In this document: in pieces, positions 26,600 through 29,216 of the stretch
Layout: every line of letters begins with the position of its first letter
Position numbering within the stretch: the stretch's first letter is position 1
Assembly: GCA_024276825.1 (NCBI GenBank)
Contig: JAJRWI010000010.1
Span: forward strand, 96,001-160,000
Origin: an archaeon
Lineage (GTDB): Archaea; Asgardarchaeota; Thorarchaeia; Thorarchaeales; Thorarchaeaceae
DNA: 64,000 nucleotides
Reading direction: 5' to 3'
Notes under the pieces: model-generated
The model's input: the letters and a program-made list of their open reading frames with translations, nothing else
Databases searched by the model: none
What the model was told of the DNA's origin: nothing
Position numbers and translations under genes: made by a program

Positions 26600-28072
26600 G
26601 TGTCCAATTGGTCGCTTATTTGCAAGAGGACCATTTCTGAAACATTGCGTAAACATGTATATTTCTTGATAGTCCTAGTCTTTGCATCTATCGTATGGAG
26701 CATAGTGTTTCATATTGCAGCCATCGAGTTCATGATGGGGATCAGGCCATTCAGAGCATCATGGACAGGGGTTGGTCAGTTCAATCTCTTTGGATATACA
26801 ATAGATTACTATTTTGAAGGTTGGGCAGACCATGATTATTATTATGTGACATGGGGTCAACAGTTTCTGCAGGGATATGTACCGTATACGACAGGATTTG
26901 ACCACTCTGTAATCAATGGTACAGAGTACTTTACACCATACTTCTTTCCACCCCTGTTTGTGTATTTATGCGCCGTTGGTGAGTTAATATCACCAGTGGG
27001 AATTGGACTGCTAATCACAGTATTTGGATTTCTCACTGCATTTCCAATTTATGGAATAGCAAGCATACTATCAAAACGTAGAGATATTGGGGCAATATCG
27101 GCTGCAACATACCTCTTCAATCCACTGGTCCTCTATCATACCGTGTTTCAATGGCTCAACCCAGCCCCATTTGTATTCTTCATATTCCTTGCATTTTATC
27201 TAATATTTAGAGGGAATAGGCTATCAGGAGCCTTAGTAATGGTCACTGCAGCACTCTTTAAGCAGACAGCGCTATTCATGGCCTTCCCACTTATTGCGAT
27301 TCTAATTAGGGTGAATCTGAAAGAGAGAGAAATTGAACCAGAAACAGTGAGTGAGAAAGATGAAAGGCCTGCAAGTGATAGGATTGACCTCTGGGGATTT
27401 GCAAAGACAAGTCTAGCAGTGATCATCTATGCACTTGCAATCTCAAGCCCATATCTTATCAATCTTGGAAAATACATATCTTCAATCTTTATGCGAATCG
27501 GCGTTGTTGACATTCAAGACTTTACAACAACTCCACCAATCTACAGACCGATTACATTCGCAGTTCCTTTTATTGCATTGGGCTTTCCTGAATGGCTAAC
27601 AAGAACTCTTAATTTCCTCACAGTATCATCCATTGGACTGATTGGGGGTATTCTTCTACTTTTTATCTTAATGTTGTTTGAGATCAAAGATGACAGAAAC
27701 ATCAATGGCTACTGGAGAAAGATGCTGTTTCTGACATTGCTGATGATGCTCTGGTTTCACCTCTGGTCCCCAAGGGGAATTTACAAGTACTATTGCATTT
27801 TGCTAATCCCCTTCTTTTCAATTTTGTCGACATCTAGAATGTGTCAAAAAGAGTGGTTAGACATCAGATTCTCAATAATTATGGTGATTTCACCGATTGT
27901 CTTTGGACTAATGATTCTGGTCCCAGACAGAAATATCTACTTATTGTATGTCTTGATGATATTCCTATTCTATGTGGCTCATACAGGATTGGGAATGATA
28001 TATGGCCGCATAACTTGTAGGTTCAGGTTCCCTAATCTTAGGAGAAGAGTCACTCAGCAGTCAGTTCCTTGA
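26600..28072 (+). CDS. GT-C fold polytopic glycosyltransferase (GT87/PIG-M-like), paralog 2
   Basis: Same motif order as the upstream gene: 'EGWADHDYYY', 'YFFPPL', 'FNP', 'WLNPAPF', 'FKQ', 'PRGIYKYY'. Confidence 0.7.
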   Translation: MSNWSLICKRTISETLRKHVYFLIVLVFASIVWSIVFHIAAIEFMMGIRPFRASWTGVGQFNLFGYTIDYYFEGWADHDYYYVTWGQQFLQGYVPYTTGFDHSVINGTEYFTPYFFPPLFVYLCAVGELISPVGIGLLITVFGFLTAFPIYGIASILSKRRDIGAISAATYLFNPLVLYHTVFQWLNPAPFVFFIFLAFYLIFRGNRLSGALVMVTAALFKQTALFMAFPLIAILIRVNLKEREIEPETVSEKDERPASDRIDLWGFAKTSLAVIIYALAISSPYLINLGKYISSIFMRIGVVDIQDFTTTPPIYRPITFAVPFIALGFPEWLTRTLNFLTVSSIGLIGGILLLFILMLFEIKDDRNINGYWRKMLFLTLLMMLWFHLWSPRGIYKYYCILLIPFFSILSTSRMCQKEWLDIRFSIIMVISPIVFGLMILVPDRNIYLLYVLMIFLFYVAHTGLGMIYGRITCRFRFPNLRRRVTQQSVP

Positions 28073-29216
28073 GCTCTTTCTCTTTCTTGGCAATCTTTTT
28101 CTTTAGGCTCTCAATCCTCTTGTCCAGCTTCTTGGCCTGTTCCATATAGTTGTCCTTACTAATGGCCCCAGAGGCATGACGCTCTTCAATATGATCACGT
28201 AATTGTTGAACTGATTTTATCTCCTTCTTCAATGCCTTGATATCTTGCTTGATCTGTTCAATTCTGTTTTCGTCCTCTGTCCTGAATTGCTTTGCAGGAA
28301 TAATGACACCAAGCTGCTTTGTCGTGCTCTCGGCGAAGTCTTGAAATTGGTTTCTTAACGCTTCAATATTTAACTCGACTTTGGAGACCTTTTCATCAAG
28401 TTTTTCGACCATCTTTTGCAGGTCAAATATTGTATTTATAAGTCTGCGAAGTGTTAGCTCCATCTCTTTGGACACAGCACTTTCAGCAGGGGCCCTCACC
28501 TGTGTCTGCTCACGCTCTGCAACTTTGCTGGGCTTCACTGAGATTGCTAGCCCGCTGAGCCACTTGAATGCACTGACTGCAAAAGTCTTGTTTCCAGGGT
28601 GCTTAATCCCACCACCCTTTCTGAAGATCTCATAGCTACCCGAACAGATGACCCTTCCATCACCATATTCAGCTGCTGCAATCACAGGTGCAGCTGGAGG
28701 ATCAGATGTATCGGAGGTCTTAACGAGGACTGTTGCCTTTCCAGTCACTGATAGAGAGCATCCCGATGGATAGAGTATGTCATTAACATCTTCAGTAGCA
28801 GGATGAGCAGCAATGTCAGACAGGATTGGCATTGTGGGAAGTCCAGCATTGTTCCTGTCGTCCTTGACAGCAGTGTTGTCAAAAGTGATATCAAATGCCT
28901 CAGAGAGTTTGCTCAGATTGTTCATCAAACCACGGTCGCCGCCAGAGAGAGCGAGTAGGAAGAGACCACCACCATTAGCAACAAACTTTTTCAACGCTTC
29001 AATCTCTGGAGCTCTGAGCTTTGAGCTGTTCGGACATCCAAAAACAATTACATTGGCCTCACCAATCTTCTTTGGAAGAATCATATATTCGGTATAGGAC
29101 TCAACTGCGAAGTTATTGTCCTTCAACAATTGAGCAAGATCCGAATATGTAGTGTCGATGCGTCCGCGCTCGTTCTGGGTCCTATCAAAGAAGATCGTTT
29201 TTCTTTCACTGCTCAA
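28050..29216 (-). CDS. Cytosolic GIFT-domain (IFT52-N-like) protein with C-terminal coiled coil
   Basis: 'TIFFD', 'EIEALKKFVANGGGLFLL...GGD....NL', 'ILYPSGCSLSV', 'GRVICSGS.EIF', 'N.TF....FKWL'; no signal peptide; long heptad region. Confidence 0.8.
   Translation of the reverse strand: MSSERKTIFFDRTQNERGRIDTTYSDLAQLLKDNNFAVESYTEYMILPKKIGEANVIVFGCPNSSKLRAPEIEALKKFVANGGGLFLLALSGGDRGLMNNLSKLSEAFDITFDNTAVKDDRNNAGLPTMPILSDIAAHPATEDVNDILYPSGCSLSVTGKATVLVKTSDTSDPPAAPVIAAAEYGDGRVICSGSYEIFRKGGGIKHPGNKTFAVSAFKWLSGLAISVKPSKVAEREQTQVRAPAESAVSKEMELTLRRLINTIFDLQKMVEKLDEKVSKVELNIEALRNQFQDFAESTTKQLGVIIPAKQFRTEDENRIEQIKQDIKALKKEIKSVQQLRDHIEERHASGAISKDNYMEQAKKLDKRIESLKKKIAKKEKELKELTAE

Follow-up and report, generated by a model that had tools for sequence, protein, structure and literature searches.

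The origin of the intraflagellar transport (IFT) machinery is only partly understood; its coat-like subunits have been traced to protocoatomer. For IFT52, we know of no assigned ancestor beyond the remark that its GIFT domain is also found in bacteria. IFT52 (OSM-6/BLD1; PDB entries 5FMR, 5FMS and 8BD7 chain B) belongs to the IFT-B1 core and is cytosolic, its GIFT domain forming the extreme N-terminus. Other relatives work elsewhere in the cell. Typical DUF4350/GldG members of the superfamily are exported or flanked by membrane segments and often carry many GIFT copies in giant proteins, and OST48/WBP1 (DDOST), which has the same fold class, is luminal and membrane-anchored. Here we analyze a gene of a thorarchaeon (Asgardarchaeota; Thorarchaeaceae), located on the minus strand at 28050..29216 of a 64,000-nucleotide stretch of DNA (contig JAJRWI010000010.1, positions 96,001 to 160,000; hereafter the window). 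Its 388-aa product combines a GIFT head, a long helix and a helical hairpin.

Like IFT52, the thorarchaeal protein is cytosolic, begins with its GIFT domain and carries its motifs in the same order; a GG[DE]...TN loop, P173 and a GS motif are common to both. Unlike IFT52, it has neither the IFT88/IFT70-binding central domain nor the IFT46-binding C-terminal domain, and its tail consists of a long helix and, after it, a hairpin that resembles the cytoplasmic tail of the oligosaccharyltransferase (OST) subunit OST1 (ribophorin I). In IFT52, for its part, the insert that separates the two GIFT domain halves is longer (profile positions ~115-160). The protein shares HP and GCSL motifs and a GGG strand end with DUF4350/GldG proteins, but it belongs to a single-copy Asgard family that lacks signal peptides and membrane helices and occurs in most Asgard lineages. 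Compared with GldG itself, it has no membrane segment, its score for ABC_transp_aux (PF09822) is below the cut-off (22.7 vs 34.7), and no ABC transporter gene lies near it in the window. With OST48 it has the fold class in common, and it differs from that luminal, anchored protein in having no signal peptide or membrane helix. We somewhat favor the reading that it is a soluble cytoplasmic Asgard protein with an IFT52N-homologous head and an OST1-like hairpin, most likely an adaptor or scaffold, and that the kin of its head are a possible source of IFT52.

An IFT52-like head and an OST1-like tail

We modeled the protein with AlphaFold (AF2) from an alignment of 65 family members (mean pLDDT, the predicted local distance difference test score, of 89). 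The GIFT domain spans aa 1-225 (28542..29216, minus strand like all parts of the gene) and has a flavodoxin-like or GATase1-like alpha-beta fold, as indicated by Pfam, by the model (pLDDT ~97) and by Foldseek. A low-confidence linker follows at aa 226-249 (28470..28541; pLDDT 47-82). It contains a short helix only, at residues 231-240, and both its length and its sequence vary across the family alignment. The linker leads into a long, coiled-coil-like single helix at aa 250-302 (28311..28469; pLDDT ~70), for which generic weak coiled-coil matches only were found, e.g., to SMC and Rad50. The protein ends with the OST1-tail-like hairpin at aa 314-387 (28056..28277), modeled as helices 314-348 and 354-387 with pLDDT values of 95-97. 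No 19-residue hydrophobic window occurs anywhere in the 388 residues, and the protein thus has neither a signal peptide nor a membrane helix.

A preliminary description of this locus, made from the sequence alone, had proposed a GIFT domain from residue ~5 without a signal peptide, followed by about 140 aa of coiled coil. The first part holds: the GIFT match starts at residue ~5 and no hydrophobic segment is present. The second needs amending, since the tail is helical but not continuous, the AF2 model dividing it into linker, long helix and hairpin. The motifs quoted in that description are all present (KTIFFD, LKKFVANGGG, GGDRGLMNNLS, YPSGCSLSV, PPAAPVIA, GRVICSGSYEIF and NKTFAVSAFKWL). Their proposed colinearity with IFT52 was also borne out, as phmmer aligns them in the same order on the solved IFT52 chains.

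Several searches connect the head with IFT52. The top Pfam family is IFT52_GIFT (PF23355), with 57.7 bits against a cut-off of 27.2 (E value 1.2e-15), a match that is therefore far beyond chance; DUF4350 (PF14258) scores 36.7 bits against a cut-off of 30.4. A phmmer search of the PDB gave significant matches to IFT52 only (5fmr_A, E 2.3e-9; 8bd7_B, 9.3e-9; 5fms_A, 5.6e-8). Comparison of the modeled fold by Foldseek, the check that the preliminary description had called for, showed that IFT52N is the closest solved structure: the mouse domain (5fms) matched with an E value of 3e-19, a template modeling (TM) score of 0.84-0.91, 24% identity and a root-mean-square deviation of 2.0-2.7 Å. OST48 came next (E 1e-10). 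We also gathered IFT52 sequences across eukaryotes, with a reference set of 120 IFT52 proteins. In hhalign, the IFT52 GIFT profile scored 229.9 (E 6e-35) against the cytosolic family vs 208.5 against exported domains, and the scores of individual sub-clades were 132-177 for cytosolic and 110-147 for exported ones. We conclude that aa 1-225 are a GIFT domain truly homologous to the IFT52 N-terminal domain. Invariant residues of this head include D11, D94, N100, D119, H138 and C153.

The rest of the protein is built differently. The IFT52 central (PF23352) and C-terminal (PF21178) domains are both present in 120/120 of the eukaryotic reference proteins. Neither gave a Pfam match in the thorarchaeal protein, even at E<=10, and its tail matched coiled-coil families only. 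In architecture, the protein is not an IFT52 orthologue.

We examined the hairpin in an alignment of 31 tails, which were chosen and aligned by eye from ~66 representative tails as those with the shared hairpin. The turn of the hairpin follows the pattern L..[FY][IV]..+[YF]..G.[ILM]....Y..Q..+L and reads ..H.SGAIS..NY..Q.KKL in the 388-aa protein. The best PDB match of the tail profile was 8whn_A, the cytoplasmic domain of OST1 from Candidatus Prometheoarchaeum syntrophicum (E 5e-4). In this domain, two such hairpins pack into a four-helix bundle, and human ribosomes were recovered with it in pull-downs (PMC11417166, J Biol Chem 2024). An alignment of Asgard OST1 tails was made from other Asgard genomes (27 usable tails from 30 loci). 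Compared with it by hhalign, the tail profile aligned in register over 69 columns with a probability of 91.5% (E 8.5e-7), and no control (reversed sequences, 20 column shuffles or the middle helix of the family itself) exceeded 2.4%. The hairpin corresponds to the second hairpin of the 8WHN bundle, including the [RK]Y..G+[IL]....Y..L turn.

The relation was also found within the organism's own genome (an assembly of 2.9 Mb in 82 contigs, 98% complete). In a six-frame search with the tail profile, the best match other than the gene itself was a 979-aa OST1-type membrane protein on contig C45 (E 4.3e-6). This protein (37440-40379, minus strand; positions 141-3080 of locus L105) has a signal peptide, an FKBP-type peptidyl-prolyl isomerase domain, a large ectodomain, one membrane helix and a cytoplasmic tail. 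The cytoplasmic tail aligns with the entire 8WHN bundle (E 1.9e-10), so that the relation is reciprocal within the genome. A six-frame search of the same genome with Pfam Ribophorin_I (PF04597) gave no match, the C45 protein included, in a search whose controls were silent as well and which is thus uncalibrated. As judged from these profile comparisons, the C-terminal ~75 residues share ancestry with one of the hairpins that form the cytoplasmic four-helix bundle in Asgard OST1/ribophorin I, a link between a GIFT-protein tail and the OST1 tail that was unreported before. The arrangement differs from that in OST1: the GIFT protein has one hairpin after a soluble helix and no membrane helix or ectodomain, whereas OST1 has two tandem hairpins after a membrane helix. 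Ribosome binding has been demonstrated for OST1 only. The hairpin may be a reused, general-purpose module.

Two further small ORFs of the genome gave weak matches to the tail profile. One encodes 203 aa (C33:20074-20247, plus strand; E 4e-4) and also matches GvpG and CdvA weakly; the other encodes 82 aa (C18:1666-1875, minus strand; E 1.5e-3). A complex prediction with two copies of aa 245-388 scored 0.06, which is evidence neither for nor against binding.

The Asgard family and its gene neighborhoods

A filter-free search with the GIFT domain against 1.8 billion cluster representatives returned 918 matches, 63 of them at E<1e-30. The best ~70 representatives make up one family, with lengths of 330-570 aa, variable tails and the opening motif I.FD.T[QH].ERG+I..NY. 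The GIFT domain starts at residue 3-8 in most of the 63 representatives; in five, 25-145 additional residues precede it. None of the ~70 nearest representatives has a signal-like segment at its N-terminus; six have one internal hydrophobic window. Members with a named source are Thor-, Loki-, Hel-, Hod- or Sif-archaeal or labeled "Asgard group", apart from one 4-kb contig labeled Korarchaeota, and they are publicly annotated as "hypothetical protein" or "DUF4350 domain-containing protein". At a threshold of E<=1e-20, a family match was present in 209 of 301 sampled Asgard genomes and in 77 of 90 when only high-quality genomes are counted; the gene is usually single-copy. Nearly all genomes of several Asgard families have it, few or none of those sampled in some others do, and Njordarchaeales have a divergent sister form. 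No paper joining IFT52 or DUF4350 with Asgard archaea was found in the literature. In the accessible part of the eukaryotic signature protein tables of Eme et al. 2023, "IFT/cilium" clusters exist and none is labeled IFT52 or GIFT. By all these searches, the proteins constitute an undescribed family that is present in most Asgard lineages.

The thorarchaeal genome encodes two other GIFT matches. The better one lies in the window itself (989-3415, minus strand) and is an 808-aa protein that includes a CBM56-like module and matches ABC_transp_aux and IFT52_GIFT weakly; the second is on contig C40. In a six-frame search with the IFT52 model, the 989-3415 gene scored 25.6 bits vs 41.8 bits for the cytosolic gene.

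The frame and start of the cytosolic gene are well defined in the ORF list and its translation. The gene runs on the minus strand from a TTG start codon (29214-29216) to a stop codon at 28050-28052. TTG is the first possible start because an in-frame TGA lies just upstream, three codons before it. This stop is overlapped by a GGTGA run (29223..29227, minus strand) that reads as a Shine-Dalgarno-like sequence 7 nt upstream of the TTG. The N-terminus, MSSERKTIFFDRTQNERG, aligns with the N-termini of orthologues, e.g., P0122 (MSGRRKKVFFDQTQNERG), and the fact that they line up indicates that the start call is right; the orthologue pattern MSGRRKK.FFDQTQNERG is consistent with it. Orthologues in Thorarchaeota are 59-92% identical, and at the family level the gene is single copy in its own genome. 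On these grounds, we regard 28050-29216 as a real, expressed-looking gene for a predicted soluble cytoplasmic protein.

Locally, the GIFT gene is alone on its strand. It overlaps tail-to-tail by 23 bases with a membrane gene (26600-28072, plus strand), the second of two adjacent paralogues that encode multi-pass membrane proteins of 516 and 490 aa (25043-26593 and 26600-28072, plus strand) downstream of a HerA-Mre11-Rad50 operon. Pfam and PDB sequence searches gave no match for either protein. The arrangement holds in Thorarchaeota and its order: one or two copies of the membrane gene follow HerA-Mre11-Rad50 in every locus of the order that was examined, always convergent with the GIFT gene. 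On the other side, a HIT-family gene (29277, plus strand) is divergent from the GIFT gene and is followed by a PCC-domain gene and then by DNA polymerase B.

We compared the context of the gene at 26 loci from 14 Asgard families and four contigs of unassigned family. DNA polymerase B stands beside the GIFT gene in three families, Thor among them. In another set of five loci (L032-L034, L036 and L021), the GIFT gene is adjacent to the replicative ATP-dependent DNA ligase gene, directly upstream and on the same strand in four and divergent in L021. These loci belong to families f27 and f5 and to one locus of unassigned family, and a conserved unannotated protein of ~200 aa follows. Two side observations concern individual neighbors. 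A 345-aa protein without a Pfam match (33250-34287, plus strand, in the window) is conserved as a neighbor of DNA polymerase B at 8 of the 26 loci, which belong to three Asgard families. The gene convergent with the GIFT gene in families f7 and f19 encodes a 256-aa protein (L024:7772-8542, plus strand, in f7) that matches Pfam ARPC4, the 20-kDa subunit of the Arp2/3 complex, with 30.7 bits against a cut-off of 22.2.

Kinship of the head and rival readings

How specially IFT52-like is the head? The family could be merely a cytoplasmic branch of the GIFT/DUF4350/GldG superfamily, whose likeness to IFT52 is that of any prokaryotic GIFT domain, and we consider this to have a little under an even chance of being correct. 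The Pfam IFT52_GIFT model does not discriminate: it gives 56.7 bits to a T9SS-tailed protein and 29-51 bits to other prokaryotic GIFT proteins. When an exported GIFT domain was modeled as a control, its top Foldseek match was also IFT52N (E 2e-15, TM 0.80-0.86, 20% identity), and the hhalign score of exported domains given above is likewise not far from that of the cytosolic family. There was no prokaryotic GIFT protein among the PDB fold matches, and IFT52 therefore wins by default. Matched profiles of 32 sequences each scored 97.1 bits (cytosolic) and 99.9 bits (exported) against Chlamydomonas IFT52. In the opposite direction, more than 150 prokaryotic representatives outscored any IFT52 against the query, and no IFT52 was among the best 150 of the 918 matches; exported multi-GIFT giants reached 70-100 bits and IFT52 ~40 bits. 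Set against this reading are small signals that agree in direction, namely the maximum-likelihood (ML) topology, a 6:1 split of diagnostic residues and the slightly better TM score and identity of the cytosolic head. The Asgard-wide, single-copy conservation of a cytoplasmic protein is also atypical of GldG-type proteins. These signals bear on a bolder reading, that the GIFT domain of IFT52 has its specific archaeal sister group or ancestor in the cytosolic Asgard family, which we hold to be possible but rather unlikely. Both proteins are cytosolic and begin with the domain. A careful ML tree of 70 rows (LG+C20+F+G4 by posterior mean site frequencies, long branches removed, OST48 and GldG sequences left out) recovered a monophyletic IFT52 and placed it, weakly, as the sister group of the cytosolic family and the Njord-type clade combined (ultrafast bootstrap 59, SH-like approximate likelihood-ratio test 82). 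With a 99-row set, the tree constrained to unite IFT52 and the family was 16.9 log-likelihood (lnL) units above a quick free-search tree (p 0.87 in the approximately unbiased [AU] test). The AU test did not reject IFT52 with another no-signal-peptide clade (lnL +0.76, p 0.52) or with the exported group (lnL -0.27, p 0.47), placements that are equally likely with lnL differences below 1, and the IFT52 stem is very long (1.36 substitutions per site). For the phylogenetic check proposed in the preliminary description, the outcome is that the ML tree sets IFT52 weakly beside the family and that two other placements stand. A column count found six IFT52-conserved residues that recur in the cytosolic family but seldom in exported domains (G93, the T before N100, N100, V117, P173 and S194) and one residue with the opposite distribution; the GG[DE]...TN loop, P173 and the GS motif follow the same division. 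Searched against the PDB, the profile of the cytosolic family matched IFT52 only, OST48 appearing at E 0.21 and site-1 protease not at all. The exported profile alone also detected OST48 (27.7 bits, E 1.5e-5) and site-1 protease (42.9 bits). The comparison set was, however, picked by likeness to the Asgard query, and a nearer bacterial GIFT lineage may therefore lie outside it. Further points against an IFT52 progenitor are the equal scores of the two matched profiles and the missing central and C-terminal domains. IFT46 (PF12317) gave no six-frame match in the genome, although control genomes gave none either, so that this search is uncalibrated. The tail, for its part, invites two other explanations. 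Its long helix followed by a hairpin resembles the steadiness box of ESCRT-I (endosomal sorting complex required for transport I) subunits Vps23, Vps28 and Vps37, and the hairpin of CdvA. On this reading, the protein would be a Vps37-like accessory subunit and would join two products of genes 11-16 kb away, the Vps28N-Vps22 fusion and the Znr-CC-PH-SB protein, a proposal that we find highly improbable. The turn pattern G-x-[ILM]-x4-[YF] is shared, the tail profile weakly matches the N-terminal hairpin of Vps28 (E 0.08-0.15), Pfam CdvA is detected in 6 of the 31 members, and ESCRT genes lie in the same Thorarchaeota syntenic block; the tail also weakly matches SHOCT and GvpG. We rejected the steadiness-box reading of the tail after hhalign of the tail profile against the steadiness-box region of 29 Thorarchaeal Znr-CC-PH-SB proteins gave a probability of 1.5%, out of register. 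Compared with 91.5% for the OST1 tail, this argues that the hairpin is OST1-tail-like rather than ESCRT-I-like. Moreover, an ESCRT gene is adjacent at none of the 26 loci, and a 2024 survey of ESCRT proteins (PMC10936438) does not mention a GIFT protein. An OST48-fold head joined to an OST1-like tail would also suit a cytoplasmic helper of glycosylation or of the translocon, acting at the ribosome-Sec-OST face or in the assembly of lipid-linked glycans. Besides the tail homology, gene context lends this some support. At five loci, the gene immediately upstream, in the same orientation, is of the NTP_transferase-LbH kind (sugar-1-phosphate nucleotidyltransferase type with a left-handed beta-helix), and at four more such a gene is found within two genes, covering four named Asgard families, Loki-type, and two unassigned contigs; a Wzx-type flippase and a GT2 gene are found nearby at two loci. 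Yet no glycosylation gene is adjacent in Thorarchaeota, the window included, and the multi-pass membrane neighbors have no family match. The GIFT domains of OST48 are luminal and the cytosolic profile misses OST48, and the hairpin may be a module of general use. We therefore consider a glycosylation helper improbable, less so than an ESCRT-I subunit.

Across these comparisons, the head appears to lean slightly but repeatedly towards IFT52, and sisterhood is not established. The candidate close archaeal relative of IFT52 proposed in the preliminary description is accordingly a genuine cytosolic IFT52N homologue whose close or sister status is neither shown nor refuted. The head is best seen as one of a set of archaeal no-signal-peptide GIFT proteins from which the IFT52 GIFT domain may stem. 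The members of this set with a named source are Asgard: the alternative no-signal-peptide clade of the AU test has one named member, which is Asgard, and the named members of the neighboring no-signal-peptide rows are Loki- and Hel-archaeal.

Two observations made along the way concern the search for IFT52 itself. Matches in two stretches, P0209, P0220 and others, were first taken for IFT52 and turned out to be prokaryotic GIFT proteins. A search of prokaryotic genomes with the IFT52 alignment found no IFT52-like gene.

A possible adaptor and its meaning

How might an adaptor or scaffold of this design work? The GIFT head would bind a partner (a protein or some component of a glycan pathway), with the flexible linker giving it reach. 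The helix and hairpin would oligomerize, the hairpin pairing with a second one into a four-helix bundle. Alternatively, they would dock on another helical bundle, on an OST1-type docking site or on the ribosome.

Several results weigh against this reading. Exported domains equal the cytosolic ones in the matched-profile and fold comparisons, and the two other placements of IFT52 stand in the AU test. In about half of the family representatives, the tail is of another kind and lacks the hairpin motif. Where the hairpin is present, it is only half of an OST1 bundle, and ribosome binding is therefore not simply transferable to it. Finally, no neighbor is universal among the 26 loci; neighbors vary by lineage, and because no partner gene is shared across lineages, the context fixes no function.

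A still wider scenario would unite the two halves of the protein. The cytosolic Asgard family and its no-signal-peptide kin would have given rise to the head of IFT52, and exported archaeal GIFT proteins to OST48, with the ancestor of the former acting at the ribosome-translocon-glycosylation face before its recruitment to the cilium. We regard this as a long shot, somewhat less likely than descent of the IFT52 domain from the family as such.

If the Asgard family is the progenitor of IFT52, one part of the IFT-B core came from the archaeal host, and the parts that bind IFT88/70 and IFT46 were added later. A single-copy, cytoplasmic, Asgard-wide GIFT protein would be the most plausible archaeal starting material, and this is testable in cultured Asgard archaea. 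Should it not be the ancestor of IFT52, the protein is nonetheless widespread among Asgard archaea, and the tail module that it has in common with the ribosome-binding tail of OST1 provides a concrete experimental lead on what its function may be.

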